A DNA stretch of 64,000 nt. It comes from a virus. Taxonomy: Duplodnaviria; Heunggongvirae; Uroviricota; Caudoviricetes. Each line of letters starts with the position of its first letter. Positions within the stretch are counted from its first letter, which is position 1. The notes under the pieces were generated by a model. It was not told the origin of the DNA, ran no database searches, and was given only the letters and a program-made list of their open reading frames with translations. Both the position numbers and the translations under genes were made by a program. Shown piece after piece: positions 9,835-44,726 of the stretch. The stretch lies in IMG/VR virus record IMGVR_UViG_3300032322_001781. One strand, given 5' to 3'.

Positions 9835-10776
9835 ATGAGTAACATATTAAATATTAAACCAGATGTTGACCCATCAACAGCCCAAATTGGGGTGATAATG
9901 GCCCGTTTCCAAGTAGCTCAACTTCACGAAGGTCATAAACAACTTATAGATACTGTATTACACTATCATAAAAAAGTTATAATTTTTCTTGGGGTGTCTA
10001 AAAAATCTTCCGACAAGAATAGTCCTCTTGATTTTGCTAATAGAAGGGCTATGATTCATGAATCGTATCCAAACGTTATCGTGCTTCCTCAATTGGATGT
10101 GCGTGATGACCACAAATGGTCTGCAAATTTAGATGCACAGATTTCATTACCGTTTGGTGAGTTATCTGCTGTGATTTATGGTAGTAGAGATTCGTTTATT
10201 CCACACTACCATGGCAAATACAAGGTTATTGAAGTTTTGCCTAAAACACCAGTTAACGGAACTTCAGAAAGATTGGCTATAGCTAGAGAAGTTATCCCTA
10301 GTGTTGATTTTAGAAAAGGTGTTATTTACCAAACATTTACACAACGCCCAGTAACCTATCCAACTGTTGATGTGGTTGCTTACAATGACAATGGTCAAAT
10401 CCTTTTGGCTAAAAAACCCAACGAAATTCTTTATCGTTTTGTTGGTGGTTTTGTTGACCGTACTGATGAATCTTGGGAATCTGCCGCTAAACGTGAGTTC
10501 ATGGAAGAAAGTGGTGGATGCGAGATAGGTGATTTGAAATACGTTGCTAGTGCTAAAATCAACGATTGGAGATATGCCAAATCAGAATCTGGTATCATGA
10601 CAACATTGTTCTTGGGTAAATTCATGTGGGGCAATGCAAAACCATCAGATGACATTGCAGTTTTAGATTGGTTGAACCCAGAAGATATCAACCCAGAAAA
10701 AGACATCATGTTGGAACACCGTGAACTCTTCATCAAATTGATTGAGTTTATGAAAGCACAAAAGTTGATAAAATGA
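9835..10776 (+). CDS. nadM: bifunctional NMN adenylyltransferase / Nudix ADP-ribose pyrophosphatase (NadM-like)
   Basis: N-terminal nucleotidyltransferase H-x-G-H motif (LHEGH); C-terminal Nudix box GGFVDRTDESWESAAKREFMEESG. Confidence 0.8.
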   Translation: MSNILNIKPDVDPSTAQIGVIMARFQVAQLHEGHKQLIDTVLHYHKKVIIFLGVSKKSSDKNSPLDFANRRAMIHESYPNVIVLPQLDVRDDHKWSANLDAQISLPFGELSAVIYGSRDSFIPHYHGKYKVIEVLPKTPVNGTSERLAIAREVIPSVDFRKGVIYQTFTQRPVTYPTVDVVAYNDNGQILLAKKPNEILYRFVGGFVDRTDESWESAAKREFMEESGGCEIGDLKYVASAKINDWRYAKSESGIMTTLFLGKFMWGNAKPSDDIAVLDWLNPEDINPEKDIMLEHRELFIKLIEFMKAQKLIK

Positions 10777-10882
10777 AAGTAGCTGTAATAGGTAGTGGCA
10801 TTTTGGGACCAAAATAGTAGCGGTACGAAAGACTCAATTAAAAAAGCTGATAAGGCTGGTAAAAAAATATTGATAATTACAT

Positions 10883-10913
10883 TTTGATAATTCAAATATT
10901 ATTCGTACCTTTG
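10883..10913 (+). promoter_or_regulatory. Bacteroidetes-type promoter upstream of NAMPT
   Basis: TTTG ... TACCTTTG. Confidence 0.55.
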
Positions 10914-10943
10914 CACAAATAACAACAATTAAAAAATAAATAT

Positions 10944-12566: not shown

Positions 12567-13054
12567 TGGTTAAGAATAACATGGTCTTATTTTGGGGAGG
12601 AACATTCTCTCAGTGGTTCCCATCTGATTTCATCATAGATGGAATCAAATACGTAACAGCAGAACAATATATGATGGCTAGAAAAGCCAAACTTTTTGGT
12701 GATAATGATGCTTATCGTGAAATCATGAAATCAAAAGACCCAGCTTATCAAAAACGAATTGGCCGTCAAGTAAAAGGATTTGAAAAAAATGAATGGGAAT
12801 CTATTTGTCGTCAAATTGTTTATGATGGAAACTACGCTAAATTCAGTCAAAATCCAAGTATGAAAGCTGAATTAATGGCTACTGGTGAGTTGGAAATTGT
12901 AGAGGCTAGTCCATATGATAAAATTTGGGGTATTGGTCTTCACGAAACAGACCCACGTGCTTGGGATAAAGCAACGTGGTTAGGAACCAACTGGCTTGGA
13001 ATTGAAATTATGAAAGTAAGAAAAAAACTTAGAGAAGATGACGCAAATTCATAG
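12566..13054 (+). CDS. NADAR (YbiA/DUF1768) domain protein
   Basis: FWGGTFSQWFP...YVTAEQYMMARKA...SPYDKIWGIG matches YbiA-like N-glycosidase/NADAR family. Confidence 0.75.
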   Translation: MVKNNMVLFWGGTFSQWFPSDFIIDGIKYVTAEQYMMARKAKLFGDNDAYREIMKSKDPAYQKRIGRQVKGFEKNEWESICRQIVYDGNYAKFSQNPSMKAELMATGELEIVEASPYDKIWGIGLHETDPRAWDKATWLGTNWLGIEIMKVRKKLREDDANS

Positions 13055-13141
13055 ATACGAAGAAAGTGTAAGTGCATTTGTTTAAAGATGAATTTTTAGA
13101 CAAATTAAAACAAATAACAAATTTTTTAAAACTTAAATAAG

Positions 13142-13597
13142 ATGATTAAATATGTAGATGGTGATTTACTCAAACTTGCCGATGAGGGTTATTTCGATGT
13201 AATTGCGCACGGAGCGAATTGTTTTTGCAATATGGGTGCTGGTATAGCTCCACAAATTAAAGCTAAATATCCAGAAGCTTATAAAGTTGATTGTGAAACT
13301 ATTGTTGGTGATATAAATAAGTTAGGAACGATAACTTATACTAAAAATACAACACCTATTGTTGTTAATATTTATTCTCAGTTCGACACAAAAGGTCGAA
13401 GACAGGGTAAAATTGATTTAGACTATGAAGCTTTACGTTCTGGTATCAAAGCTATGAAAGAAAAATTTTCTGGTAAACGATTTGGACTCCCATACATAGG
13501 AACGGGTTTGGCGGGAGGCAATGAAGCTAAGGTTATAGCTATAATAGAGGAAGAAATGAGAGGTGAGTACGTAACTATGGTTAGATACGTACCATAA
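13142..13597 (+). CDS. macrodomain protein (ADP-ribose binding / ADP-ribosyl hydrolase)
   Basis: Macro motifs DVIAHGANCFCNMGAGIAPQI and GLPYIGTGLAGG. Confidence 0.75.
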   Translation: MIKYVDGDLLKLADEGYFDVIAHGANCFCNMGAGIAPQIKAKYPEAYKVDCETIVGDINKLGTITYTKNTTPIVVNIYSQFDTKGRRQGKIDLDYEALRSGIKAMKEKFSGKRFGLPYIGTGLAGGNEAKVIAIIEEEMRGEYVTMVRYVP

Positions 13598-13618
13598 TTC
13601 TTTAAAAAAGTATTAAAT

Positions 13619-13804
13619 ATGTCTAAACAAACGATTACAATTGGCGTTGCCAATGAAAAAGAAAAAAACATAGATGTTGAAGAATTAAAAACATGGGTAC
13701 CTAAAAATATTAGTTATTTTAGCGATACTGTTTATTTTAAACAGGATAAAGTTTATTATTCGATGAAAAGATTGGATTTTGATAAAATATTTCCTAAAAA
13801 ATGA
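13619..13804 (+). CDS. hypothetical small protein
   Basis: ORF. Confidence 0.3.
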   Translation: MSKQTITIGVANEKEKNIDVEELKTWVPKNISYFSDTVYFKQDKVYYSMKRLDFDKIFPKK

Positions 13805-14238
13805 GTGTAGTTAAAGCAATAGAAAAATTTTACCAAGATAAAGAAAAACGTGGTTGGGAAAAAGGGTTTTTTTTCTTTGATATTCATGGGACTATTCTTA
13901 AGCCAAATTATGAGTATGGTAATACACCAAAAGAATTCTATCCATATGCTAAAGAAGTTCTGCAACTTTTTAGTAAACGAAAAGATGTTTGTATGATACT
14001 TTATACTTGCTCACACCCAGATGAAATTGAAGAATATCTTAAACTTTTTGAGAATAATAACATAAAATTTGATTATGTAAATGAGAATCCAGAAGTTGTA
14101 ACTGATGTAAATGGTTATGGTTGTTACGATAAAAAACCATATATGAATGTCTTATTTGAAGATAAAGCTGGTTTTTATGGTGAAGAAGATTGGTTACCAG
14201 TTTTAAAGCTTTTAAAAGAAAAATACCCAGACGTGTAA
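13801..14238 (+). CDS. hypothetical protein
   Basis: ORF. Confidence 0.45.
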   Translation: MSVVKAIEKFYQDKEKRGWEKGFFFFDIHGTILKPNYEYGNTPKEFYPYAKEVLQLFSKRKDVCMILYTCSHPDEIEEYLKLFENNNIKFDYVNENPEVVTDVNGYGCYDKKPYMNVLFEDKAGFYGEEDWLPVLKLLKEKYPDV

Positions 14239-14318
14239 ATATAATTTGTCTTTTTTATTTATTAAACTTCTTGTTTTATTGAAAAATAACTAGTACTTTT
14301 GTGTAAATTAATTACATT

Positions 14319-14606
14319 ATGAAAAAACTAAACACAATTTTTGCCTTAGTCATATTAACATTTTTACTATATGGTTGTTTTCCACGTGAAATTCATTCTA
14401 ACAATACAAATGAGTTACCAGGTTTTTGGTTGGGTACGTGGCATGGTATGATAAGTGGTTTTTCATTTATAGGTAGCTTATTCGATGATTCGATTAAAGT
14501 TTATGCAATAAATAATAATGGACATTGGTATGATTTTGGTTTTGTTGGTGGGTTATTTTTTATTTTTAGAATATTTTTTAGTATGATAAATAGTAAAAAA
14601 GATTAA
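14319..14606 (+). CDS. hypothetical membrane protein
   Basis: N-terminal TM/signal, second hydrophobic segment. Confidence 0.4.
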   Translation: MKKLNTIFALVILTFLLYGCFPREIHSNNTNELPGFWLGTWHGMISGFSFIGSLFDDSIKVYAINNNGHWYDFGFVGGLFFIFRIFFSMINSKKD

Positions 14607-14607
14607 T

Positions 14608-14907
14608 ATGAGTTATAGGCCGCTACCAAGTTATTTAACGATAAAACCATCTATATTAGATGGTCTTGGGTTATTTGCAACCGATGATATTGATGAGAAT
14701 CATGTTCTTGGTATATCACATGTTTTTCATTCCAATTTTCAAGATGGGTATATCAGAACTCCTTTAGGTGGATTTTTTAATCATTCTGATTCACCTAATT
14801 GCAAAATAGTTGATAAGGGAGCTTATCTAATATTGCAGACGATAAGAAAAATAAATGCTGGTGAAGAAATAACAGCTTATTACACATTATATAAACTAGA
14901 AAAATGA
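14608..14907 (+). CDS. SET domain protein (putative lysine methyltransferase)
   Basis: GLGLFA, NHSDSPNC (NHSCxPN-like) and EEITAYY (post-SET-like) motifs. Confidence 0.65.
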   Translation: MSYRPLPSYLTIKPSILDGLGLFATDDIDENHVLGISHVFHSNFQDGYIRTPLGGFFNHSDSPNCKIVDKGAYLILQTIRKINAGEEITAYYTLYKLEK

Positions 14908-15269
14908 GCGTAATTAAATTTGAATTAAAAAAAGAACACGTGCTTTTGCTGAAAAATTTACGTTGGAGCGTAAACAGTCGGGGTATTATTAGTGGTGTTG
15001 CTGATGAAGGTGATGAAATAGCGCCTCCATTTGGTGAAACAAACATATATGATGCTATTAGTCTGATATTAAATGGAAAACCAGAAAATGTTGATTTGTT
15101 AACACATGATGAATTTTTTATTTACACAGATGAACAAAAAGCTGAATGGGATAAATTATATTCTGAGTTGCCAACAGCTCTAGAGATTATTCTTAGTAAT
15201 AATAGTTTTGATACTGGTATTTATAAAACAAAATATCATTTACGAGACTGGAAAAAAATTAATTCATAA
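14904..15269 (+). CDS. hypothetical protein
   Basis: ORF. Confidence 0.45.
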   Translation: MSVIKFELKKEHVLLLKNLRWSVNSRGIISGVADEGDEIAPPFGETNIYDAISLILNGKPENVDLLTHDEFFIYTDEQKAEWDKLYSELPTALEIILSNNSFDTGIYKTKYHLRDWKKINS

Positions 15270-15449
15270 AAATGAATAAGATAAAGTTTTTATCACTATT
15301 TTTTCTTATATTAATAGTGTTTGTCTCTATTAAAATTTTTTTAATATCCTTATCTATAATTTTTACTTTTTTAAAAATTGTAATTTTTAGTTTTTTAATA
15401 ACATGTGTTTTGTTTTTAATTATTTATTTTAAAAATAAGTTTAAATAAT

Positions 15450-15481
15450 TTTGTTAGTTATATATTTTTTTAATACCTTTG
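15450..15481 (+). promoter_or_regulatory. Bacteroidetes-type promoter
   Basis: TTTG ... TACCTTTG. Confidence 0.55.
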
Positions 15482-15496
15482 TAAAAATTCTATTAC

Positions 15497-15688
15497 ATGA
15501 CCTATAAAAAATCTTATGCGATTGTTAAAACCTTTAAAGAAAAGGGTAAAATAAAATCTATTTTATTAGTTGACACACATTCTGAAATATGGGAATTTGA
15601 TGATTTTAATGAAGCACAAGCAATTGCTGATGTTTTAACAAAAAATTCTGATTCTGGTTGGATGTATTTTGTAAGGTCTATTAATTAA
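15497..15688 (+). CDS. hypothetical small protein
   Basis: ORF. Confidence 0.35.
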   Translation: MTYKKSYAIVKTFKEKGKIKSILLVDTHSEIWEFDDFNEAQAIADVLTKNSDSGWMYFVRSIN

Positions 15689-15699
15689 AAATAACAATC

Positions 15700-16656
15700 A
15701 TGGAATCTATAATTTTTTCATTAGATGGTAGAGTAGATTTGATGAACTCTATTTTAGAACATTATAATAAAATTTCAGAAAACAAAAACACTATTATAGG
15801 TGAATTCAACCATCAAAAATTTTCAGATGGTGAATTATGTGGTGATTATAGCGTATCTGTAAGAGGTAAAAGAGTTTATCTTTTATCAAGTGCTAATGAT
15901 AGTGACAAAATTATTAGTCTAATTTTAGCAATTGATGCTGCAAAAAGGGCTGCTGCGTCCGAAATCATTCCAATACTCCCATATTTTCCTTATGCTAGAC
16001 AGGATAAAAAGGACCAAGTTAGAGGCCCTATTGGAGCTAAAGTTATTGCAAGTATGTTAGAAAATGCTGGTGCAACATCCATAATCACATTTGACTTACA
16101 CGCAGACCAAATTCAAGGTTTTTTTGATATTCCTCTTACGCACATAGAAGGTAAAAACGTTTTCGATGATTACATATATTCAATTTCTAACGAAAATACT
16201 GTTTTGTGTGGACCAGACGCTGGCTCTGGCAAGAGAGTTAAAAGAATGAAAGACCAATTATTAAATCATTATGGTTTAGATTTAAATTATGTTATGATGG
16301 ATAAAACCAGAAAAGTTGCTAATGAGGTTGATAAAATGGTTATAATTGGAGATGTTCAAGATAAAGATGTGATAATTTTGGATGATATGGTTGACACAGC
16401 TGGGACTTTATGTAAAGCTGCTAGTGTGATTATAGAAAACGGGGCTAAAAGTGTTATGGCTATAATTAGTCATGGTGTTTTATCTGGGAATGCTTATAAA
16501 AATATTAATTCTTCAGTTTTAAAAGAATTGGTAATAAGTGATTCACTACTTAAAAAAGATTTACCTAATAATATTATAACAATAAGTATTGATTTTCAAA
16601 TAGCGAAAACTATCGCTTCAATAAACAATAATTTAAGTTATGAATTAATAAAATGA
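15700..16656 (+). CDS. prs: ribose-phosphate pyrophosphokinase (PRPP synthetase) family protein
   Basis: Prs architecture: DGE..G.....VRGK.VYLL.S N-domain and PRTase-type C-domain (VIILDDMVDTAGTL). Confidence 0.8.
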   Translation: MESIIFSLDGRVDLMNSILEHYNKISENKNTIIGEFNHQKFSDGELCGDYSVSVRGKRVYLLSSANDSDKIISLILAIDAAKRAAASEIIPILPYFPYARQDKKDQVRGPIGAKVIASMLENAGATSIITFDLHADQIQGFFDIPLTHIEGKNVFDDYIYSISNENTVLCGPDAGSGKRVKRMKDQLLNHYGLDLNYVMMDKTRKVANEVDKMVIIGDVQDKDVIILDDMVDTAGTLCKAASVIIENGAKSVMAIISHGVLSGNAYKNINSSVLKELVISDSLLKKDLPNNIITISIDFQIAKTIASINNNLSYELIK

Positions 16657-21363: not shown

Positions 21364-21554
21364 TGATGAATAAAAAAAAAGAAAAACAACACAAACTAAA
21401 TTCATAAATTAAGCATCAAATTGTTCGTGTTGGCGAACATGGAGTTATGCCAATAAAAGAAGCCCAACAAATGGCTGATGACCAAGAATTGGTAATTATT
21501 GTAGACAAAAAGACCATACAAAAAATAAATTAGGTTTGATTTATAAAATAGATT

Positions 21555-22061
21555 ATGAAAAAACAAAATAGGAAAGAAAAATTAAATAAAGAAATTAAAA
21601 TTCAAAAAATAAGACTAGTTGGGGCTTTTAATGGTGAAATAGTTACTTTAAAAGATGCTTTAATTAAGTCAGAAGAAATGGGTTTGGATTTAGTTTTGAT
21701 TTCTGAAAATAATGATATAGGCGTTTGTAAAATAATGAACTATGAAAAGTTCTTATATGAGCAAATGAAAAAAGAAAAAGACAAACCTAAACCTTTGGAT
21801 GTGAAAGAAATTAAGATTGGTCCAAATACATCGGAAAATGATTTGGATTATAGGATAAAACACATGTCTGAATTTTTACAAAAAGGTCATAAAGTAAAAA
21901 TAACCATGCAATTTAAAGGTCGTGAAATGTCTTTTTCAACCAAAGGTGAAGAATTAATGTTAAAACTTATATTGAAGTTAACTGATTTCGGTTCAGCTGA
22001 AGCAATGCCTAAATTTGAAGGTAAAAAGATGTTTGTTACTATTAAACCAGTTAAAAAATAA
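21555..22061 (+). CDS. infC: translation initiation factor IF-3
   Basis: Near full-length alignment to bacterial IF3: IRLVG..GE...L..AL..AEE.GLDLV.IS.N....VCKIM.Y.KFLYE; C-domain VKEIK..P.T...D...K.....FL..G.K.KIT..F.GREM. Confidence 0.9.
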   Translation: MKKQNRKEKLNKEIKIQKIRLVGAFNGEIVTLKDALIKSEEMGLDLVLISENNDIGVCKIMNYEKFLYEQMKKEKDKPKPLDVKEIKIGPNTSENDLDYRIKHMSEFLQKGHKVKITMQFKGREMSFSTKGEELMLKLILKLTDFGSAEAMPKFEGKKMFVTIKPVKK

Positions 22062-22089
22062 GTATTAACCAACAACATTTATTTGGAAG

Positions 22090-22121
22090 TTTGTAAAGCT
22101 CAAAAATATTTATTACCTTTG
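22090..22121 (+). promoter_or_regulatory. Bacteroidetes-type promoter
   Basis: TTTG ... TACCTTTG. Confidence 0.55.
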
Positions 22122-22132
22122 CGAATATTAAT

Positions 22133-22471
22133 ATGAAAAATAAAACATACTTTACTAGACGTGGAAAACTGAAAAGTATTTTGGAGTTAAATTTCTTAAA
22201 TAAAAAAGTTGGGGCGACTGAAATAGAAGCTATCCTCAATATGGTTGATGAGTATGAAAAAGATAATCTAGACACCATTGAAAAATTAAAAAGACAAAAA
22301 AAAATTGAATTAAATAAAATCAATGGGGCTTTAAAACAAACCATAAATGTACATTCTAGTATTACTAAAGAGCTTATTGGCTCGGCCAGCAAACGCATTT
22401 ATGGGGCGTTGCTTGAAGATAAACCAAAACAAACTATTTTAAGTAGAATAATAACTTTTTTTAAATTATGA
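22133..22471 (+). CDS. hypothetical protein
   Basis: ORF. Confidence 0.4.
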   Translation: MKNKTYFTRRGKLKSILELNFLNKKVGATEIEAILNMVDEYEKDNLDTIEKLKRQKKIELNKINGALKQTINVHSSITKELIGSASKRIYGALLEDKPKQTILSRIITFFKL

Positions 22472-22989
22472 GAAATATTACCAAATTGGCTGTGTTTGAT
22501 TTCGATGGGACCTTAATTATGTCACCTTTGCCAGACACGGGTAAAAAATTATATCAAGAAAAAACTGGTAAACCTTGGCCATACCAAGGTTGGTGGGGGC
22601 GTGAAGAATCGTTGGATACAACTATCTTTGATATGCCATCTAATCCTAGTGTAATCGCTGATTACCAAAAGGAAAAAGCTGACACTAACACTGCTGTAAT
22701 CATGTTGACTGGACGTATGACAAAGTTAGCTGATAAGGTAAAAGATATTTTGGATTCTAAAGGGTTAACTTTTGACGGTTATTACTACAACAGAGGTGGT
22801 AGTACAGATGTTGAAAAGATTAAGACGTTAAATGAAATTTTAGAAAAAATTCCATCTATTGAAGTTGTTGAAGCTTGGGATGACCGTTTAGAACACATCC
22901 CAACGTTTGAACAATGGGGTAAATCTAAAGTTGAAGAGGGAAGATTAAAAGACTTTAAAATAAACGTGGTGTTCTCTGGACATCACTAA
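22468..22989 (+). CDS. HAD-superfamily phosphatase
   Basis: Motif I VFDFDGTLI. Confidence 0.5.
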   Translation: MRNITKLAVFDFDGTLIMSPLPDTGKKLYQEKTGKPWPYQGWWGREESLDTTIFDMPSNPSVIADYQKEKADTNTAVIMLTGRMTKLADKVKDILDSKGLTFDGYYYNRGGSTDVEKIKTLNEILEKIPSIEVVEAWDDRLEHIPTFEQWGKSKVEEGRLKDFKINVVFSGHH

Positions 22990-22993
22990 AAAT

Positions 22994-23020
22994 AAACCCA
23001 CTAAAAAGTGGGTTTTTTTA
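22994..23020 (+). terminator. rho-independent terminator
   Basis: aaacccac-taaaaa-gtgggttt + T run. Confidence 0.75.
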
Positions 23021-25039
23021 TTGCAAAAAGAAAAATTTGGTAGTATATTTGTAAAAATGATTAAAATAAACGAAATATTAGAAGGTAGATTAAGCATGAA
23101 CGCTAGTTGTTCAGCTTATTTGGTTAGCAACGATTTACCCAAGGACATTTACATTAGCAAAAACAACACAAATAAAGCTCTTCATTTAGATACCGTTAAG
23201 GTTAGAGTGATTGAAGGTAATGGCCGTTCAATTGAAGGTGAAGTAATTGAAATCATAGAACGATTTAGAAACGATTTTGTTGGTACTATACAAGTGTCAC
23301 CACGATATGCTTTCTTCATTCCAGATAGCAACAAGTTACCAATAGACTTTTTCATACCATTGGCCAAATCCATGGGTGCCAAAGATGGTCAAAAAGTTGT
23401 TGCCAGATTGGTTGAGTGGAAAGACGATGCCAAAAACCCCAATGGTGAAATCATTCGTATTATAGGGGATGCTGGAGAACATGAAACAGAAATACATTCG
23501 ATACTAGAAGAATATGGTTTACCATATGACTTTGATGGCGATGTAATAGCTGAATCAGAAGCCATTTCAGAAATCATCCCACAATCAGAGATTGACAAGC
23601 GTAGAGATATGCGTAATGTACTTACATTTACCATTGACCCAGCGGATGCCAAAGACTTTGATGATGCTTTGAGTGTTGAATGGGTGAACGGTGAATTGTT
23701 TGTTGGTGTTCACATTGCCGATGTATCGCATTATTTGCGTCCAGACACTGAATTGGACAAAGAAGCGTATGCTAGAGGTACTTCGGTATACCTAGTAGAT
23801 AGATGCGTTCCAATGCTTCCAGAAAGGCTTTCTAATGGCTTATGTAGTCTTAGACCAAACGAAGATAAGCTTTGTTTCTCAGCGGTTTTTAAATTGGACC
23901 ACAACGGCCATGTATTGGAAGAATGGTATGGTAGAACTGTAATTAACTCCAATCATCGTTTCACTTATGAGGAAGCACAAGAGGTTATAGAATGGAAAGA
24001 TTATAATGCTATGTCAAACCTATGTAAAAAAATTGGACTTGTTGATTTTAGTGTTGATGAAAAAGTAGATGAGGATTTAATAAAAGCTCATGGTTTAATC
24101 AACGCAATCAAGACACTTGACAAGATTGCCAAGAAGATGCGTAAGGTTCGTTTATCTAAGGGTAGTATATCATTTGATAAACAAGAAGTTAGATTTAAGT
24201 TGGATGAGAAGAACAAACCAATTGATATTATATTCAAGGTTGGCAAGGACTCAAACAAATTGATTGAGGAATACATGTTATTGGCAAACAGACATGTTGC
24301 ACAGTTCCTTAATTCAAAAGGAATACCTAGTGTTAATCGTGCACATGATAAACCCAACGAAGAAAAGCTTAACAGTTTAAAAGACTTTATCAAACAATTT
24401 GGTTATGACATAAAAACCCATGACCCAATTGAAATAACCAAAACACTCAATAAATTGCTTGAAGATGTAAAGGGAAAACCAGAAGAAAATATGATTAATA
24501 ATCTTGTTGTTCGTGCCATGCAAAAAGCAGATTACAGAACCAAGAACATTGGTCACTATGGATTAGGGTTTAAAGACTACACTCATTTTACTAGCCCAAT
24601 TAGACGTTATCCAGATGTAATTGTACATAGATTATTAGGAAGGTTATTAGAAAATAAAGTATCACCTAAGATAGAAAAATTAGAGGCTAAATGTGTTTAT
24701 TTATCAGAAAGAGAGAAGAAAGCTCAAAAGGCTGAACGTGATTCTATCAAGTATATGCAATGCATTTACATGACTAACAATGTTGGTAGAATATACAAGG
24801 GTATAGTTACGTCTGTTGCCGAATATGGATTATTTGTAGAAATGATTGATAACAAATGCGAAGGACTCGTTAGATTATCAGAAATTGGTGGTGACACTTA
24901 CATGGCTGATGTAAATAATTATTGTGTTAAGGGTTTTAATACTGGACAAATTATAAGGCTCGGTGATGAAGTTATGGTGGTTATAAAATCAGTTGATATT
25001 GAAAAGAAAAATATAAATTTGACGCTTATTAGACTATGA
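23021..25039 (+). CDS. rnr: ribonuclease R / RNase II family 3'-5' exoribonuclease
   Basis: RNB catalytic motif TFTIDPADAKDFDDALSVE, N-terminal cold-shock/OB region, C-terminal S1 domain; start may be internal Met (23054). Confidence 0.85.
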   Translation: MQKEKFGSIFVKMIKINEILEGRLSMNASCSAYLVSNDLPKDIYISKNNTNKALHLDTVKVRVIEGNGRSIEGEVIEIIERFRNDFVGTIQVSPRYAFFIPDSNKLPIDFFIPLAKSMGAKDGQKVVARLVEWKDDAKNPNGEIIRIIGDAGEHETEIHSILEEYGLPYDFDGDVIAESEAISEIIPQSEIDKRRDMRNVLTFTIDPADAKDFDDALSVEWVNGELFVGVHIADVSHYLRPDTELDKEAYARGTSVYLVDRCVPMLPERLSNGLCSLRPNEDKLCFSAVFKLDHNGHVLEEWYGRTVINSNHRFTYEEAQEVIEWKDYNAMSNLCKKIGLVDFSVDEKVDEDLIKAHGLINAIKTLDKIAKKMRKVRLSKGSISFDKQEVRFKLDEKNKPIDIIFKVGKDSNKLIEEYMLLANRHVAQFLNSKGIPSVNRAHDKPNEEKLNSLKDFIKQFGYDIKTHDPIEITKTLNKLLEDVKGKPEENMINNLVVRAMQKADYRTKNIGHYGLGFKDYTHFTSPIRRYPDVIVHRLLGRLLENKVSPKIEKLEAKCVYLSEREKKAQKAERDSIKYMQCIYMTNNVGRIYKGIVTSVAEYGLFVEMIDNKCEGLVRLSEIGGDTYMADVNNYCVKGFNTGQIIRLGDEVMVVIKSVDIEKKNINLTLIRL

Positions 25040-25779
25040 CAGACGAACAATTAGTTAAATCTTTTTTGGATAAAAATTACAGTTTAAAAGCCTCATTTGT
25101 AAGGTATTATGTTGTTGAAAAACAATCAGATAAAGAATTTAGTGAAAAATCTTTTAATGATGAAATATCTAACATTTTTGGTCACATAAATGGGTTAAAA
25201 AGTTACTTTGAAGAATGGTTTGATAACAAAAAAAGTGACTTATTAAAAGAAATCTATGATGAATTTGGTTTATTGGATTTTAGTAAAAGAAGTGTTGAGC
25301 TAATGGCAGTTCTATTCGAATTGGAGTTAAGTAAAAAATACGACAAGCCCTTTGTTGTACAAGTGTTTGAAGATTATTATTTTAATTATGTGTTAAAATA
25401 TAAACTTAAAAACTTTATCAAAGAAACTTATGAGGACAAAAAGACATGTAGTTCTGATTTGATTAGATTGGCGTTAGAACTATTAAACGGAGAAACACCA
25501 AGTATAGTTGAAAAGTCAGAGGCGATGATTAATGAATGGTATTTTGAAAACGTATTTTCAAAAAAAATAGATTTTTTCTTCAAAGAAGCTAAATTAGTTT
25601 TGGGACCGACTAATTGGATGGTTATACACCCATATTATGGAAAATTAAACACAGATAAATTAAGCAAACATTTTCCAGAAGAAACCATTTATCAAACATC
25701 TGTTTTAAATAAACAATATGATGATTGGTACAACGAAAAAATTTTGGAAGTCTCTGAAAAAATTATGAAAGAATTTTAA
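25036..25779 (+). CDS. hypothetical protein
   Basis: ORF overlapping rnr stop by 4 nt. Confidence 0.5.
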   Translation: MTDEQLVKSFLDKNYSLKASFVRYYVVEKQSDKEFSEKSFNDEISNIFGHINGLKSYFEEWFDNKKSDLLKEIYDEFGLLDFSKRSVELMAVLFELELSKKYDKPFVVQVFEDYYFNYVLKYKLKNFIKETYEDKKTCSSDLIRLALELLNGETPSIVEKSEAMINEWYFENVFSKKIDFFFKEAKLVLGPTNWMVIHPYYGKLNTDKLSKHFPEETIYQTSVLNKQYDDWYNEKILEVSEKIMKEF

Positions 25780-25791
25780 AACAAAACTTGT

Positions 25792-25819
25792 TTGGTTAAT
25801 TTTAATTATGTACCTTTGC
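25792..25819 (+). promoter_or_regulatory. promoter-like element (atypical spacing)
   Basis: TTTGG ... TACCTTTG with about 16-nt spacer. Confidence 0.35.
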
Positions 25820-26952
25820 TGAAAAAAATGAATTTAATAGATAAACTACTCAACAACACGCTTTATAGAAATAAATATAAAACGGATTCCGAGGCTGTTA
25901 TTATAGCCTGTTATTTCAACCCTCAGAATAATCCATATAGATTAAAAGCATTTAATATATTTTATGATTCCATAAAACATTTAAATCATAGAATTGTTGA
26001 GTGTACTATTAATAACTCTGAACCTGAATTACCAAAAACTAAATTCATAACTCATATTCACACTTCTAGTTTATTATGGCATAAAGAGGCTCTTTTGAAC
26101 AATATTATAAAAAATTTAGACCGAAAGTTTAAGTATGTTTTTTGGTTAGATGCTGATATAATTTTTACCGATAAACATTGGTTGGTAAATTCGGTTGAAG
26201 TGTTGAAATATAAAAATATTTTACAACCATTTGAATATTGTGTTCATCTAGAAAAAGATAAATTAACACCAACATTTAAAACTAAAGATTATCACCCAAA
26301 TTGTTTATTATCTGAGAAAAAACTTAGACACCCAAATTTATGGCGTAGTTTTTGTGCTAATTATGTTACCACAAACTTATCTGAATCTGAAAATTACGAT
26401 TTACATGGACATGTTGGTTTTGCTTGGGGTGCTAGAAGAGATGCTCTTGATAAGATACTTTTGTATGACCGTGCATTGATTGGTGGTGCTGACCATATTA
26501 TGGCACATGCCGCTGCTGGACATATAGGTCATACATGTATAACTAAATCATTCACAGATGATATTGAAGCTGTAAATGATTGGTCTAGAAAATTTTATTC
26601 TGTGATTGGTGGTAGCATCGGTTATGTAGAAGGTGAAGTTAGACATATTTGGCATGGTGATTTAACAAAGCGTGATTATTTGAATAGAATTAAAAATTTC
26701 ACAAATACTTCTAAAACAATTACAGAAAAAGACTCTAATGGTCTTCATATTACATCGGATGATTCATATGTTAAAAGATACTTTGAGCAACGTGAAGTTA
26801 AATCGGATAATGATGGTGATTTTTTAACTTCTATGGTTGTTGCTAATATGACTGATTCGGCTATTATTGGAAATGCTATTGGTGGTAACATGATGGGTTC
26901 TATTTTAGGTGAATCATTAAATGATGATAAAAATAATGAAAATTTTTCATAA
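25792..26952 (+). CDS. hypothetical protein, possible DXD-type glycosyltransferase
   Basis: YVFWLDADIIF resembles GT-A DXD region; weak. Confidence 0.45.
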   Translation: MVNFNYVPLLKKMNLIDKLLNNTLYRNKYKTDSEAVIIACYFNPQNNPYRLKAFNIFYDSIKHLNHRIVECTINNSEPELPKTKFITHIHTSSLLWHKEALLNNIIKNLDRKFKYVFWLDADIIFTDKHWLVNSVEVLKYKNILQPFEYCVHLEKDKLTPTFKTKDYHPNCLLSEKKLRHPNLWRSFCANYVTTNLSESENYDLHGHVGFAWGARRDALDKILLYDRALIGGADHIMAHAAAGHIGHTCITKSFTDDIEAVNDWSRKFYSVIGGSIGYVEGEVRHIWHGDLTKRDYLNRIKNFTNTSKTITEKDSNGLHITSDDSYVKRYFEQREVKSDNDGDFLTSMVVANMTDSAIIGNAIGGNMMGSILGESLNDDKNNENFS

Positions 26953-27365
26953 TGGAAGAAGAAAAAGAATTTAATATTGAGGAGTTTAAAAAACTTTTAT
27001 CAACGTTTATTAAACGTAACCTTAAAGGCTATCATTTTGTAGCTGAAGCTATTGATAAGGCTGAACCAACAGAACGTTCATTATTATCTAAATTAAAATG
27101 GTATGCTGAAGATTTATTTGAAGCTTTGGATGGTGAGTCTAAAGATTTAGAAGGTGAGATTTCAGACCTAGAAGACGATGTACGTAAATTAGAAGGTGAG
27201 ATTTCAGACCTAGAAGACGAATTGGAGGAGTCTAGGTTAACCATTGGTAGTACCTTAAATGATGAATATAAGATTAAATTCTTTAGAGAATATCATGAAA
27301 ATTATACTCCGTGGGAGATAGAGGAATTATTGATGAATGGTAAAAAATATCTTAATAAAACATGA
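26952..27365 (+). CDS. hypothetical coiled-coil protein with internal 42-nt tandem duplication
   Basis: Repeated LEGEISDLED[D/E] encoded by identical 32-nt stretches at 27147 and 27189. Confidence 0.45.
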   Translation: MEEEKEFNIEEFKKLLSTFIKRNLKGYHFVAEAIDKAEPTERSLLSKLKWYAEDLFEALDGESKDLEGEISDLEDDVRKLEGEISDLEDELEESRLTIGSTLNDEYKIKFFREYHENYTPWEIEELLMNGKKYLNKT

Positions 27366-28018
27366 AAATAGTTTGTATATCTGACACACACTCAAAACAT
27401 AATCAAATATCTAGCGAGTATATTGATAACAAAGACGGTTCAATAGACATGATAATTCACGCTGGTGATGTATCTAATCGTGGTTATGAAAATGAAATTA
27501 TAAATTTTTTATCTTGGTATAATGAATTAAATTATAAACATAAAATATTAATTGCTGGAAATCACGATTTTTACTTTGAAAAAACGAACCCAGAAACAAT
27601 AAAAAAATTATTTTCTGAATTTCCAAACATTACCTATCTCAACGACAGTGGTGTTGAAATAGAAGGTTTTAAAATTTGGGGTAGTCCTGTTCAACCATGG
27701 TTTTATAATTGGGCCTTTAATAGAACCTCATCAATGATTAATGAACATTGGGAAAGGATACCTTTAGATACCGATATACTTATTACACACGGACCAATGA
27801 ACGGATGTTTAGATTTAACTAATGGGGGTGAACCAGCTGGTTGTCCGCTTTTAAGGGATAAAATATATAAATTAAAAAATTTAAAATTACATGTCGTTGG
27901 TCATATACACGAAGCTTATGGAAGAATTGATGTTCAAGATGGACCTATATTTATTAACGCTAGTCTTTTAAATTTGAATTATATTATGAAAAATTTACCA
28001 ATAATTGTTGAACTTTAA
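27362..28018 (+). CDS. metallophosphoesterase (YfcE/MPP-like)
   Basis: CISDTHSKH, HAGDVSNRG, AGNHD, GHIHE motifs. Confidence 0.7.
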   Translation: MKIVCISDTHSKHNQISSEYIDNKDGSIDMIIHAGDVSNRGYENEIINFLSWYNELNYKHKILIAGNHDFYFEKTNPETIKKLFSEFPNITYLNDSGVEIEGFKIWGSPVQPWFYNWAFNRTSSMINEHWERIPLDTDILITHGPMNGCLDLTNGGEPAGCPLLRDKIYKLKNLKLHVVGHIHEAYGRIDVQDGPIFINASLLNLNYIMKNLPIIVEL

Positions 28019-28208
28019 AATAATAAAAAAAATGAACTTATACAAATACATTTTCTGGTATAATGAATATGAGGGCCTATGGTACGCTATTGAAAGAGAC
28101 GATGAAATTTTATTCTTTAATGGGAAAAGAAAAGAACTTAAAAATATTTTATCTAACAAAGATATAAATTTATTAATAAGAAAAGTTAATAGACTGTTTA
28201 AAAAATGA
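28005..28208 (+). CDS. hypothetical small protein
   Basis: ORF. Confidence 0.3.
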   Translation: MLNFKIIKKMNLYKYIFWYNEYEGLWYAIERDDEILFFNGKRKELKNILSNKDINLLIRKVNRLFKK

Positions 28209-28933
28209 GTAGAATAATAGCTATTGGAGACACCCACGGGCGCTCAACATGGAAAAGAATTTTAAAAAAAGAAACAGAATTCGATAAGTGTATATTCATT
28301 GGTGATTATTTTGATACTCATGACAATGATTGTACACCTGATAAACAAATAGTAAACTTCAAAGAGATAGTCGAGTTTAAAAAAGCGAATCCAGACAAGG
28401 TTATACTTCTTACGGGTAATCATGATTACCACTACATTAGGGGTGTTGGTGAAACATATTCTGGGTATCAAGCTTCGTATGCTTTAGAAATAGGTGAGCT
28501 AATCGAACAGGCTATCAACGATGATATTATGCAGATGTGTTATCTGCATAATGATTTCTTTTTTAGTCATGCTGGCCTCACAAAAACTTGGGTACAATCC
28601 ATATTAGCGCCTAATAACATTAACCCTCTGGTCGATGATGTTATGGTGCAAACAATCAATGATTACCTTAAATTTCAACCCAGAGTGTTTGGGTTTATGA
28701 TGGGTAACAACTTTGACCAAACTGGTAATGATATAACTCAGGGGCCCATATGGGTGAGACCACAATCTTTGGTAAAAGATATGGTGGAAGGTATAACATG
28801 TGTTGTTGGTCACACTCAAGTTCCTGAGCTAACGTATTTGCCAGATTATAAGCTTATACTTATTGATTGTCTAGGTAGTGTGGACGAATATTTTGTAATA
28901 GATAATGGGGTAACAAAAATTGGAAGAATTTAA
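28205..28933 (+). CDS. Ser/Thr protein phosphatase family (PPP / ApaH-lambda phosphatase-like)
   Basis: IAIGDTHGR, IGDYFDTHD, LTGNHDY, GHTQ motifs. Confidence 0.7.
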   Translation: MSRIIAIGDTHGRSTWKRILKKETEFDKCIFIGDYFDTHDNDCTPDKQIVNFKEIVEFKKANPDKVILLTGNHDYHYIRGVGETYSGYQASYALEIGELIEQAINDDIMQMCYLHNDFFFSHAGLTKTWVQSILAPNNINPLVDDVMVQTINDYLKFQPRVFGFMMGNNFDQTGNDITQGPIWVRPQSLVKDMVEGITCVVGHTQVPELTYLPDYKLILIDCLGSVDEYFVIDNGVTKIGRI

Positions 28934-28940
28934 CCAATTA

Positions 28941-28972
28941 TTTGGTAAATTAAAAACTATTATTTACCTTTA
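28941..28972 (+). promoter_or_regulatory. promoter variant (-7 TACCTTTA)
   Basis: tttggtaa-N20-taccttta. Confidence 0.4.
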
Positions 28973-29012
28973 TTAAAATTTTTAAAGATGTTAAAGGAAA
29001 AAATAGTAACCA

Positions 29013-29252
29013 TTGTTTTCATTTTATTTTTTTTTGGTAACTTTATTAGTTGTCTTTTTTTACGAACCACCTAATTGCAAATACGAGCTTAAACGAGTCA
29101 GAATTGATTCTGTGTCATGTAGAGATAGATATACTTTTTTACCTGACAAACTGTGGCTGTATTATACCAAATATGGTGTTGTGATTACCTCACGTAAAAA
29201 ATATAATGTTGGAGATTCCATAGAAATTAAAAAATTTAAAAACTTTGAATAA
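29013..29252 (+). CDS. hypothetical small protein
   Basis: ORF. Confidence 0.3.
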   Translation: MFSFYFFLVTLLVVFFYEPPNCKYELKRVRIDSVSCRDRYTFLPDKLWLYYTKYGVVITSRKKYNVGDSIEIKKFKNFE

Positions 29253-29724
29253 TAAAGAATTCATCATTGGAAAGTTAAAAGAAAAAGATTTTGCGAAGCT
29301 TTTTACTAATGTTGTTAGTTCGTCAACAATTGAAGATGTCTATGAACACTGGGACTTGTTAATTAAAACAAAAATTGATGTAAAATCTATAAAAAAAGAA
29401 TCTAGAGGTGATTTAAAACCAAACGAAAACTTTCATTGGGTTGAACTTAAAAACGTTAGAGGTAAATTGTCATGGCTTTATGGAAAAGCGGATTTTTTTT
29501 CTTTTGAAACTGAAGACTATTGGATTATTGTAGAAAAAGAGTCTCTTCAAAAATTCATTGAAGAAAAATGTAAAGGTAAACAAATTGGACCCTCTAAAGA
29601 CCCATATGAATTATATCAACGTATTGGTAGAAAGGATGTGATTGTAAAAGTTAAAACAATAGACCTTATTTATATTTCTATTACATTAATTAAAAAATAT
29701 GAGCAAACTGATAGTCAAAAATAA
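29245..29724 (+). CDS. hypothetical protein
   Basis: ORF. Confidence 0.45.
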   Translation: MNNKEFIIGKLKEKDFAKLFTNVVSSSTIEDVYEHWDLLIKTKIDVKSIKKESRGDLKPNENFHWVELKNVRGKLSWLYGKADFFSFETEDYWIIVEKESLQKFIEEKCKGKQIGPSKDPYELYQRIGRKDVIVKVKTIDLIYISITLIKKYEQTDSQK

Positions 29725-30145
29725 AAAAGCTTATTATGAATACAACATTTTAGAAAAAGTTATTGCAGGTGTTCAACTTAAAGGTTCTGAAGTTAAGTCA
29801 GTTAAATTAGGTAATGTGACTATAAGTGAGTCTTATTGTTTTGTTTTAGATAATGAGATATTCATAAAGAATATGCATATATCAGAACATAAACAAGGTG
29901 GTATTTATAATAATCATGAACCTTTGCGTGATAGAAAACTTTTATTAAGAAAAAAAGAGATTTTGACATTAAATGAAAAAGTTAAACAGAAAAGTTTGAC
30001 TATTATACCATTGGCTGTTTTTTTATCAGAAACTGGTTATATAAAAATCGAAATTGGTCTAGCTAAGGGTAAGAATACTTACGACAAAAAAATGTCACTT
30101 AAAATAAAGACATTAGAAAAAGAATTAAGAAAAGATTTAGATTAA
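29699..30145 (+). CDS. smpB: SsrA-binding protein SmpB
   Basis: Collinear with SmpB: KNKKAYYEY.I......G..L.G.EVKS...G...I..SY......E......HI.E...G.....NHEP.R.RKLLL.K.EI..L..K....GLT..PL......G..K.E..LAKGK...DK. Confidence 0.9.
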   Translation: MSKLIVKNKKAYYEYNILEKVIAGVQLKGSEVKSVKLGNVTISESYCFVLDNEIFIKNMHISEHKQGGIYNNHEPLRDRKLLLRKKEILTLNEKVKQKSLTIIPLAVFLSETGYIKIEIGLAKGKNTYDKKMSLKIKTLEKELRKDLD

Positions 30146-30157
30146 AAATTAACATAT

Positions 30158-31054
30158 ATGAAGCAACTTGTAATAACAAATAGACTTACTAATAGGGAAA
30201 ATGAATCATTCAAACAATATCTTAAAGATATCGCTGAAATTGATGTATTCACTCCAGAGGAAGAAACTATTTGTGCTGAAAAGGCTAGTCAGGGTGATGA
30301 AGAAGCGATAAAAGAATTGGTGAGAAGAAATTTACGTTTTGTAGTATCGGTAGCCAAACAATACGCAACATCTCAAAATCCATTGCAAGACCTTGTGAAT
30401 GAGGGAAACATAGGACTTATTATTGCGGCTGAAAAATTTAACCCAAAAATGGGTTTTAAATTTATTTCTTATGCTGTTTGGTGGGTACGTAAAATAATAA
30501 TGGAACACCTTTCAAAACATGGTCGTTTAGTTAGATTACCAGCAAATAAAATAAATAGTCTATCAAAATTAGATAAAGAAATGTCTGTATTAGAACAGCG
30601 ATTAGGAAGAACAGTAAGCGTTCAAGAAGCCATAGATGTATTAGCCAATTCTGGTAACTATGATTTAGTTTCTTTAAAGAAAAAGAGTGAAGAATATGAA
30701 TTTTTAGATGTTTTATCGTCTTATCATATGGATTCATTAGACCGTGATATAGGTGGTGATGATGGAAACGGAACGTTACTATCAGATACTATTTCAGACG
30801 ACAGCATATTTAAACCTACTGACTATGGTATTAACAATGCTGATGTAAAAAATGAAATAAATAAGTTATTAAACACACTGAAACCTAGGGATAGAAAGGT
30901 CATTGTTGCTTTATTTGGTTTGGATGGAAGTATACCTAGAACACTTAAAGATATTGGTGACGAAATAGGTGTTACACGTGAAATGGTTAGACAAATAAAA
31001 GAAAAATGTTTAACTAAAATGCGTAAAAAAATGGAAAACTCTGAAATAATTTAA
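30158..31054 (+). CDS. RNA polymerase sigma factor, sigma-70 family
   Basis: Region 2 (LRFVVSVAKQY, ISYAVWWVRKII) and region 4.2 HTH (LKDIGDEIGVTREMVRQIKEKCLTKMR). Confidence 0.85.
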   Translation: MKQLVITNRLTNRENESFKQYLKDIAEIDVFTPEEETICAEKASQGDEEAIKELVRRNLRFVVSVAKQYATSQNPLQDLVNEGNIGLIIAAEKFNPKMGFKFISYAVWWVRKIIMEHLSKHGRLVRLPANKINSLSKLDKEMSVLEQRLGRTVSVQEAIDVLANSGNYDLVSLKKKSEEYEFLDVLSSYHMDSLDRDIGGDDGNGTLLSDTISDDSIFKPTDYGINNADVKNEINKLLNTLKPRDRKVIVALFGLDGSIPRTLKDIGDEIGVTREMVRQIKEKCLTKMRKKMENSEII

Positions 31055-39816: not shown

Positions 39817-39821
39817 TATCA

Positions 39822-40080
39822 CGTTCATTGATAAACAACTTTGGCTCGGTAAAGCCTCTTGCGAAAGCAACGTAACCGATGCCGTAGATATTAGGATAGG
39901 GGTTATGCTGGCTGATTACGTTATCTGCCCGATAATGAATGCTCAACCATAAGTTTCCAAACTTCCCCGATTCCTATTAACATGATTAGAGTTTGGAAAC
40001 CGAATACGTGCCAGTATTTGATTAGCGTTTGGTTGGGAAAAGGTAAAATCGGAAAGTGGGGAGGATAGACCTCCCCATAA
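39822..40080 (+). ncRNA. candidate structured ncRNA (~260 nt), unknown family
   Basis: No ORF; higher GC than flanks; internal stems (gtttccaaac...gtttggaaac); ends with GC hairpin ggggag-N-ctcccc. Confidence 0.5.
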
Positions 40081-40102
40081 TCCTTTAAAATTAAAAATTA
40101 AA

Positions 40103-43011: not shown

Positions 43012-43072
43012 TATAACGTCCGATGATAAACAATCGTTTTAATGTTGTTTATCATTTGTTATGTGTAGGTGT
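43012..43072. repeat. 60-nt intergenic repeat copy 1 (contains hairpin gataaacaa-TCGTTTTAATG-ttgtttatc)
   Basis: Near-identical copies at 44610 and 44937, each directly after a small ORF stop. Confidence 0.8.
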
Positions 43073-43103
43073 TTTTTTATTGCGAAAAATAAATATATAA
43101 ATT

Positions 43104-44660: not shown

Positions 44661-44726
44661 ACACAGTATTTTTGTGGGAGGGTTGATAAATTAGAAATAA
44701 ATTAGTATATTTGTAAAAAACTGAAT

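Follow-up and report, generated by a model that had tools for sequence, protein, structure and literature searches.

Why should a phage carry its own genes for a translation initiation factor, a ribonuclease, a ribosome-rescue protein and a sigma factor, and why should they lie together? The question is raised by a stretch of 64,000 nucleotides from IMG/VR virus record IMGVR_UViG_3300032322_001781 (the window; all positions count from its first letter), in which genes for IF3 (infC), RNase R (rnr), SmpB and a sigma-70 family factor are found between 21555 and 31054. The answer favoured here, with a probability a little better than even, is that the window derives from a ∼300-kb phage of Bacteroidota belonging to the Mahaphage clade (RTP-BML1 group), and that the block, situated in an auxiliary and probably early region, holds old, vertically inherited and selected genes of Bacteroidota ancestry which would keep translation running and clear damaged RNA.

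Four genes for translation, RNA turnover and transcription

An earlier note, made from the letters of this DNA, had named the four genes, and all four open reading frames (ORFs) lie on the + strand where it placed them. The identifications are not due to chance, since the E-values range from 1e-45 to 1e-202. Homologues were compared on a series of contigs designated by L and a number, among which L003-L008 and L010-L012 are close relatives of the window and L013, L014 and L016 are more distant viral sequences.

IF3 (21555..22061, +) is a full-length protein of 168 aa with N domain, linker and C domain. In profile searches the ORF reaches 152.6 bits against TIGR00168, for which the equivalog cut-off is 60, with further matches to PF05198 (IF3_N, 70.7 bits), PF00707 (IF3_C, 99.3 bits) and phrog_9787; residues 11-179 of E. 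coli IF3 align with it. With a curated cut-off passed and both domains complete, the assignment is secure. The simplest reading of the start codon is ATG at 21555, the same as in L010; it is preceded by an ATT codon and, before that, by TAG. In E. coli the start codon of infC is AUU, which is non-canonical and autoregulatory. The established role of IF3 is to discriminate against non-AUG and leaderless starts, the opposite of the proposal in the earlier note that a phage copy might bias initiation towards them. Nearly all starts in the window are ATG, most of the apparent TTG starts prove to be the -7 boxes of promoters, and three to four genes do look leaderless.

RNase R is encoded by an ORF at 23021-25039 (+). 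Its real start is most likely the ATG at 23057, which gives a protein of 660 aa, like those of the relatives, composed of CSD1, CSD2, RNB and S1 (23057..25039). The curated cut-off of the RNase R model TIGR02063 is passed (674.6 bits against 597.85), whereas models of RNase II stay far below theirs (187-223 bits against cut-offs of 542-642). OB_RNB, CSD2, RNB and S1 domains and phrog_13933 are matched as well, and the catalytic motif DPADAKDFDDA (TIDPADAKDFDDA; D-x5-D-x-DD) is intact and aligned with the B. subtilis and E. coli motifs. Among solved structures the best match is to 8cdu, in which B. subtilis RNase R was caught on ribosomes.

Both ends of the enzyme are short. The N-terminal helix-turn-helix (HTH) is absent: the protein begins at CSD1, the profile is matched from position 68 on, and the nearest homologues of 700-745 aa have ∼80 additional N-terminal residues. 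A K/R-rich C-terminal tail is absent too, the protein ending where S1 closes. That this tail had been lost specifically in the phage was considered and dropped: in a representative search the nearest 700-745-aa homologues also stop 2-28 residues past S1, so the missing tail is probably ancestral for the branch and only the loss of the HTH stands. In E. coli, SmpB is bound by the S1 domain plus the K/R-rich tail of RNase R (PMC12320835); a link of this kind cannot simply be assumed for the phage enzyme. The earlier view of RNase R and SmpB as a functional pair finds no support as it was put: the genes are 4.7 kb apart, they fall in different predicted transcription units, and the RNase R has neither HTH nor a tail after S1. 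PADLOC gives no defence-system assignment for rnr or smpB.

SmpB (29699..30145, +) has 148 aa, C-terminal tail included (GKNTYDKK...). It scores 166.3 bits against PF01668 and 166 bits against both TIGR00086 and NF003843, above their equivalog cut-offs of 119.1 and 130, covering profile positions 2-143 of 144; phrog_6791 is also matched. Its basic tail, GKNTYDKKMSLKIKTLEKELRKDLD, carries the GK-x-x-[YH]-DK-[KR] motif, which reaches into the decoding centre, and can be aligned with those of SmpBs of known structure. Profile searches had been named beforehand as the test on which the SmpB and IF3 assignments would stand or fall, and they support both.

The sigma-70 family factor (30158..31054, +) begins 12 nt past the smpB stop and is a protein of 298 aa of the Bacteroidota primary-sigma type, without region 1.1. 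Its identification as sigma-70 holds through TIGR02937, the one superfamily model whose cut-off it passes (none of the NCBIfam equivalog models does so), and through Pfam regions 1.2, 2 and 4; phrog_351 is matched as well. Region 3 was not detected with Pfam; alignments with SigA nevertheless run through it. Residues 1-289 are collinear, at 41% identity, with a 287-aa sigma from a Lentimicrobium metagenome-assembled genome, and because the two are collinear over their full length the phage factor can be assigned to the short, region-1.1-less architecture of Bacteroidetes primary sigma factors.

Host, transcription and age of the block

The host phylum can be read from the promoters. In Flavobacterium johnsoniae, Bacteroidetes promoters follow a -33/-7 consensus and genes have a Kozak-like A at -3 and no Shine-Dalgarno site; transcription starts 4-5 nt past the -7 element (PMC6847099). 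The window has 23 copies of the octamer TACCTTTG, where 3.05 would be expected and shuffled sequence gave 8 at most; 21 of the copies are on the + strand. When aligned, the sites read AATTTGGTAA-N-TCAAA-N-TACCTTTG, equivalent to TTTG-N20-TAnnTTTG (+ strand examples are at 1378, 9811, 22114, 25811, 37679 and 57801). Only this specific class is enriched: a scan of the window for E. coli-type sigma-70 promoters found 87 sites against 79.8 expected, and the general pattern TANNTTTG was found 129 times against 120. Upstream of gene starts the sequence is A-rich, with A at -3 in 72%, and GGAG is present in just 1 of 96 cases. The absence of Shine-Dalgarno sites, together with the 21 TTTG-N20-TACCTTTG promoters, points to a host among the Bacteroidota. 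The same promoter class is abundant too, at 7-16 sites per 17-20 kb, in the close relatives L003, L004 and L010, and is absent from the distant L013 and L014. At the genes starting at 1390, 37691 and 38434, 4 nt separate the -7 box from the ATG, and the F. johnsoniae spacing rule predicts leaderless mRNAs.

Within the block these elements outline several transcription units. The box upstream of IF3, TAGGTTTG, carries G where this base is almost never seen in F. johnsoniae promoters (PMC6847099), and because of these deviations IF3 appears to have no convincing promoter of its own. A Bacteroidota-type promoter with -7 box TACCTTTG at 22114..22121 (+) is predicted to drive the ORF at 22133 and the gene for a HAD-family phosphatase. 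An intrinsic terminator, the hairpin AAACCCACT-AAAA-AGTGGGTTT with its T run (22994..23015, +), lies between the HAD gene and rnr and recurs at the same site in L003, L004 and L010. It is followed by a -7-like box, TATATTTG (23044..23051, +), conserved in L003 and L004 and placed 5 nt before the rnr ATG at 23057. Since terminator and box precede rnr, RNase R and the overlapping ORF downstream look like a separate two-gene unit, and the rnr mRNA is predicted to be leaderless or nearly so. The last recognisable promoter upstream of smpB and the sigma gene is a full-consensus one, with -7 box TACCTTTG at 25811..25818 (+). The + strand has no further TACCTTTG site between 25811 and 32948, and on this ground two phosphoesterase genes, smpB and the sigma gene are predicted to be co-transcribed.

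The phage context recognised in the earlier note is borne out by gene organisation, PHROG families and relatives in IMG/VR. The window has 30% GC, is ∼89% coding, carries nearly all of its genes on one strand and contains many small ORFs without a family match. All four genes of interest belong to existing PHROG families, relatives of the SmpB are found on IMG/VR viral contigs, and homing-endonuclease remnants are present. A T5 A1-like protein (phrog_1745, 486 bits) has its best matches, at 44-47% identity, in Maribacter and Flavobacterium phages. The RNase R protein is also encoded on a 306,401-bp ENA scaffold (ERZ28593802 scaffold_2). Judged by the position of rnr, base 1 of the window corresponds to base 255,872 of that scaffold, which would end near window position 50,530, and the protein encoded at 61858-63015 is not on scaffold_2; as the window runs past the scaffold's end and this protein is missing from it, the window represents another assembly or a variant genome.

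Genes of this kind have been described before. Al-Shayeb et al. (2020, Nature 578:425) list IF1, IF3, tmRNAs, SmpB and sigma-70 among the genes of huge phages (PMC7162821). Their supplement includes RTP_PHAGE_33_21, a genome of 338,752 bp from a mine tailings impoundment, assigned to the clade Mahaphage and the group RTP-BML1, with annotations for IF-3 (167092), a HAD-like protein (169410), ribonuclease R (170799), phosphoesterases (174001 and 177356), SsrA-binding protein (178293) and an RpoD-family sigma factor (178790); RNase R is annotated in the supplement and not discussed in the text (PMC7162821). The window proteins are 74% (RNase R), 62% (SmpB), 58% (HAD), 57% (sigma), 56% and 49% (phosphoesterases) and 55% (IF3) identical to these, and the conserved gene after rnr is 29% identical. 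The orthologue of the sigma factor, labelled 'RpoD family', has its best hit in Flavobacteriales. Because the same block is annotated there, the window is another member of a described group and the combination of genes is not new. Orthology and synteny with a member point to the Mahaphage clade for the window phage, the clades themselves being defined by terminase or capsid phylogeny.

How long have the genes been in this lineage? In the relatives they stand in a collinear order: (IF3), an ORF, HAD, RNase R, a conserved ORF, a metallophosphoesterase, a small ORF, a second metallophosphoesterase, small ORFs, SmpB and sigma. The whole block is collinear in L003-L005, L010 and L012, and its SmpB-sigma end is also common to L006-L008 and L011. 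Directly downstream of the sigma gene, L006 (12368-19200; also L007 and L008) carries genes for Cas3, a Cas7fv-like protein and Cas6 with an array of ∼26 repeats of 66-nt period, a phage-borne CRISPR-Cas system; the L006 SmpB is 67% identical to that of the window. Against L010 the ratio of non-synonymous to synonymous substitution rates (dN/dS) is 0.05-0.13 across seven genes tested (IF3 0.10, SmpB 0.12, RNase R 0.05-0.06), rough values with dS near saturation, and indicates purifying selection.

The nearest cellular SmpBs in GTDB genomes come from Bacteroidota (Bacteroidales, Vicingus, Olivibacter, Lentimicrobium) and are 49-54% identical; metagenomic homologues at 60-79% identity are very many. 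In a rough neighbour-joining tree the SmpBs of the window lineage form one clade, whose sister, on an IMG/VR contig, likewise has its gene beside one for a sigma factor, and the group is nested within a cluster of Bacteroidota and Bacteroidota-phage sequences. For RNase R, the nearest representatives outside the lineage are at most 50% identical. Conserved synteny, low dN/dS, ∼50% identity to cellular proteins and a single SmpB clade together argue that the genes are functional and are old residents of the phage lineage, so that the choice posed earlier between recent capture and ancient descent falls on the ancient side.

Vertical descent has not kept the block uniform. Identities to L003 are 92% for RNase R, 68% for SmpB and 63% for IF3, and those to L010 are 91% for IF3, 86% for RNase R and 76% for SmpB, a mosaic that fits recombination, possibly driven by homing endonucleases beside IF3. 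Just upstream of IF3 lies a decayed N-terminal fragment of an IF3 gene (21366..21500, +; MNKKKEKQHKLNS and IKHQIVRVGEHGVMPIKEAQQMADDQEL, separated by an in-frame TAA at 21405-21407). It matches the window's own IF3 weakly and the N-terminus of the RTP_PHAGE_33_21 IF-3 at 50% identity over 40 aa (E 6e-14). This is followed by the 3'-end remnant of a NUMOD-type homing endonuclease gene (21488..21571, +), which overlaps the IF3 start; its C-terminal peptide (IGNYCRQKDHTKNKLGLIYKIDYEKTK, then a stop) also ends an intact ORF upstream of IF3 in L010 and L012, in which NUMOD-like motifs were recognised by eye, without a profile search. That the IF3-like stretch might in part be an artefact of the endonuclease gene is rejected by the match to the RTP_PHAGE_33_21 IF-3; fragment and remnant are both real. 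The locus (21366-21571) suggests endonuclease-driven turnover, which would fit the mosaic identities of IF3 and RNase R.

The tmRNA and the role of the block

A phage SmpB raises the question of the transfer-messenger RNA (tmRNA) that it would serve. Neither ARAGORN nor Rfam, the latter at gathering thresholds and at E<=5, detects a tmRNA in the 64 kb of the window. The whole tRNA array has none either; L009 covers it almost entirely and contains tRNAs only, and protein genes limit the array on its far side. The phage-supplied tmRNA considered in the earlier note is equally missing from the surroundings of smpB, to a distance of 10 kb, in L003-L008, L010-L012 and the viral L013, L014 and L016, and from those in five other huge phages. 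In L015, an IMG/VR contig that served as a positive control, smpB is followed after 12 nt by a tmRNA of 79.4 bits (1497-2328, near the contig end) with a tag ending ...MAVAA; this pair may belong to the host, next to a prophage inserted at ssrA.

In the window smpB is accompanied not by a tmRNA but by RNA end-healing enzymes and a sigma gene. The HAD-family phosphatase (22468..22989, +) has a DxDGT motif and matches PF10307 (HAD_SAK_1, 2.2e-11) and phrog_415 (6e-10). The label of the latter, 'polynucleotide kinase', is taken to reflect the HAD-type phosphatase domain of that enzyme, and the protein is probably a polynucleotide 3'-phosphatase. Its gene lies directly upstream of rnr in most relatives that cover the region, with two small genes between them in RTP_PHAGE_33_21. 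Metallophosphoesterase 1 (27362..28018, +; PF00149, PF12850, phrog_1649) and metallophosphoesterase 2 (28205..28933, +; PF00149, phrog_8238 at 5.5e-08) both resemble the phosphoesterase part of the phage 'RNA ligase' family. The first of them also matches the PADLOC phage-defence candidate PDC-S10 (257.7 bits, E 1.7e-77); a close homologue of what is considered a candidate for bacterial defence is thus encoded by a phage.

Gene identities, conservation and order, promoter type, host phylum and the lack of any tmRNA close by are shown; the course of events proposed from them is inferred in every functional step. During infection RNA would be cut by phage and host nucleases and by defence systems, leaving ribosomes stalled on truncated messages. 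Phage SmpB, acting on tmRNA, would raise rescue capacity, the tmRNA being that of the host unless a phage copy lies outside the sequence read. The phosphatases could turn 3'-phosphate or cyclic-phosphate ends into 3'-OH, and RNase R could then remove the RNA fragments. An additional IF3 might keep 30S subunits free and initiation accurate on messages that have no Shine-Dalgarno site, and the sigma factor may keep RNA polymerase engaged with phage promoters built on the -33/-7 pattern of the host.

Several observations weigh against this account. Here the predicted transcription units of IF3, RNase R and SmpB are separate, and in more distant huge phages the three genes lie 100-300 kb apart, so what brings them together may be common timing or an accessory-gene hot spot rather than membership of one pathway. 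Even the coupling of SmpB and sigma is not strict, as the sigma gene has its own promoter in L003 and L010. The conserved 247-aa protein whose start overlaps the rnr stop (25036..25779, +) has no family match; it follows rnr in L003-L005, L010, L012 and RTP_PHAGE_33_21 and has six close homologues, and its AlphaFold2 model (predicted local distance difference test score 63) has no fold match in the PDB at E<=0.001 and offers no functional clue. The near-saturation of dS loosens the measure of selection. The 64-kb window is devoid of capsid, tail and terminase genes, and its flanks, as far as covered, have no terminase or capsid gene; with virion genes lacking from the window, phage identity is based on indirect evidence and on orthologues in a phage already described. 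The tmRNA search, finally, gave no match in the ∼64 kb covered of a ∼300-kb genome or in the surroundings of smpB in relatives.

That last point gives room to a complete rescue system, in which a phage tmRNA elsewhere in the ∼300-kb genome pairs with the phage SmpB and possibly adds a phage-specific tag. Tentative as it is, this alternative has precedents, for Al-Shayeb et al. reported both tmRNAs and SmpB in huge phages (PMC7162821), and phage tmRNAs are known from Bxz1-like mycobacteriophages and from Bacillus phage G (PMC4131195). It has to contend with the run of negatives, from the window and the tRNA array to the relatives and the five huge phages, obtained with the same tools that found the L015 tmRNA.

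The dispersal of the three genes in other huge phages, and the terminator-bounded unit that rnr has to itself, also suit a different arrangement: RNase R would mainly destroy host mRNA and rRNA, as part of host shut-off and nucleotide scavenging, and IF3, SmpB and sigma would be independent accessory genes that share a permissive region. Genes for nucleotide and NAD salvage lie nearby, the best structural match of the enzyme was captured on ribosomes, and turnover of 30S subunits by RNase R has been reviewed (PMC12320835). Against such independence, the order from rnr through the phosphoesterases to smpB-sigma is kept though protein identities fall to ∼50%, and the HAD gene stays beside or close to rnr; independent assortment is doubtful. 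Less likely still is a module dedicated to counter-defence, in which SmpB, encoded with no phage tmRNA, would take over the tmRNA of the host to free ribosomes stalled by RNA-cleaving abortive-infection systems, while the HAD 3'-phosphatase and the two metallophosphoesterases, as the end-healing set, together with an RNase R that is pared down and nearly leaderless, then heal and degrade the cleaved RNA.

Could SmpB instead be a decoy that sequesters host tmRNA and blocks trans-translation, for example to disable a tagging-dependent host response? No cognate phage tmRNA was seen in the sequence covered, and the system is known to be vulnerable to titration, since isolated tRNA-like-domain molecules can inhibit it by titrating SmpB (PMC4131195). 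A decoy would be expected to lose the tail, whereas this SmpB is full length, matches the equivalog from end to end and keeps the C-terminal motif required for its work on the ribosome, all of which makes the idea very improbable. The faintest possibility is that of a bacterial chromosome fragment, a plasmid or a mis-binned contig with housekeeping copies, for which speak the lack of capsid, tail and terminase genes and the large plasmids with similar translation genes noted by Al-Shayeb et al. (PMC7162821), and against which stand the phage-like gene organisation, the many PHROG matches, the homing endonucleases, the IMG/VR relatives, the orthology of the block with a Mahaphage genome and an SmpB just ∼50% identical to any cellular copy found.

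Neighbouring genes, other features and known systems

Three further proteins of the block have no assigned function. The conserved 112-aa protein encoded at 22133..22471 (+) has no family match and is 52-73% identical in relatives; the 374-aa protein at 25828..26952 (+), also without a family match, is 63% identical in L006. A 159-aa protein (29245..29724, +), the gene for which overlaps the smpB start by 26 nt, is found at 55-65% identity in L006-L008 and L010-L012 and is absent from L003-L005. Around the four genes extends an island of ∼30 kb with genes for tRNAs, RNA ends, translation and NAD/ADP-ribose. Upstream its members are the tRNA array and genes for MnmA and for 2H/LigT-like, YqeY-domain, Thg1-like, tRNA-binding-domain, Nudix, NAMPT, PRPP synthetase, NADAR and Macro proteins. 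MnmA, the Thg1-like enzyme and the tRNA-binding protein are assigned to tRNA modification and repair, and the 2H/LigT-like protein to the healing of RNA ends. The NAD/ADP-ribose set proper, at 9835-16656, comprises Nudix, NAMPT, NADAR, Macro and SET domain proteins and the PRPP synthetase.

The window holds further RNA features. Rfam calls three tRNAs that ARAGORN missed (2452-2563, 48896-48964 and 980-1053), one of which, 112 nt long, may carry an insert and lies between protein genes away from the main array. Inside the tRNA array, directly after a weak, long tRNA-like match (678-794, 23.5 bits), a match to the hepatitis delta virus-like ribozyme RF02682 is found at 795-862 (+), with 42.8 bits against a gathering score of 44, an E-value of 1.3e-06 in a local search and the GGCUAAGA core present; it resembles the ribozymes reported beside phage tRNAs.

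Two promoter-led, ORF-free stretches, at 39817-40085 (+) and 52876-53390 (+), have their first 15 nt in common (TMTCACGTTCATTGA). The first has 40% GC in a 30% GC genome, a folding energy of -82.4 kcal/mol (z = -3.78) and, at its end, a hairpin of GGGGAGG and CCTCCCC; L017 and L018 conserve the second at 90%. Rfam models match neither, on which ground they were rejected as tmRNAs, and the two are candidate non-coding RNAs of the phage. A long 12-nt periodicity spans several small ORFs at 63336-64000. Two repeated elements lie in intergenic gaps, parts of them recurring in relatives: an 80-nt element with its own inverted repeat in three copies of 78-90% identity (43012-43091, 44610-44689 and 44938-45017), and a 42-nt element with core ATAACGGTTG in four (34672, 43416, 44358 and 45209).

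Ribosome-rescue and initiation factors encoded by phages bear on how very large phages take over translation, the question raised by Al-Shayeb et al. in 2020. The window does not present a new kind of system. What it adds is an example resolved in detail, the host phylum of which is clear, together with a defined class of promoters, evidence for an old block under selection, and an smpB found with end-healing enzymes and a sigma gene instead of a tmRNA. Its value is that of a candidate for experiments should a Flavobacteriia-infecting relative be cultured.

Linkage of rnr with smpB (and ssrA), and decay of non-stop mRNA coupled to trans-translation, are known from bacteria such as E. coli and S. 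pneumoniae (PMC3534368, PMC12320835). The phage has the same two families near each other, with the SmpB tail complete and the RNase R catalytic centre intact. It differs in the 4.7 kb and the predicted unit boundary that part the genes, in having no ssrA nearby, and in an RNase R that has neither HTH nor K/R-rich extension. A survey of RefSeq in 2012 found phages with tmRNA and none with smpB (PMC4131195). The Bxz1 group and Bacillus phage G thus resemble the window phage in encoding one half of the tmRNA-SmpB pair, but it is the opposite half. The healing and sealing of RNA by T4 Pnkp/Rnl-type enzymes, directed against anticodon nucleases, offers a parallel in the HAD phosphatase, the RNA-ligase-related phosphoesterases, the tRNA genes and the Thg1-like enzyme of the island; no kinase domain or RNA ligase was identified in the window, and an exonuclease takes the place expected for the ligase.

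The sigma factor finds its counterpart in sigma-ABfr, the primary sigma of Bacteroidetes, which recognises the -33/-7 elements TTTG/TAnnTTTG. At ∼290 aa, without region 1.1 and collinear with a 287-aa Bacteroidota sigma, the phage protein has the same build, and the 21 + strand promoters of the window fit TTTG-N20-TAnnTTTG. It is, however, just 41% identical to the one cellular example compared, and in the phage sites the variable positions are always CC and the flanks show additional conservation (AATTTGGTAA, TCAAA).

Among huge phages, LR756501-LR756504, LR745206 and the Lak megaphages of Prevotella also encode SmpB, at 39-43% identity, and the LR genomes RNase R (31-49%) and IF3 (39-41%) as well. 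In these phages the genes are not clustered, and the Lak megaphages have no RNase R among the matches listed. The closest known system is RTP_PHAGE_33_21: eight genes of the block are collinear, and the genome, at 338,752 bp, is similar in size to the 306,401-bp scaffold. RTP_PHAGE_33_21 and the window each derive from non-marine water, and the best hits of each indicate Bacteroidetes. The two are different species-level lineages. The block of RTP_PHAGE_33_21 contains additional genes and two tRNA-like features labelled 'undetermined', whereas the window has the decayed IF3 fragment and the homing-endonuclease remnant upstream of IF3.

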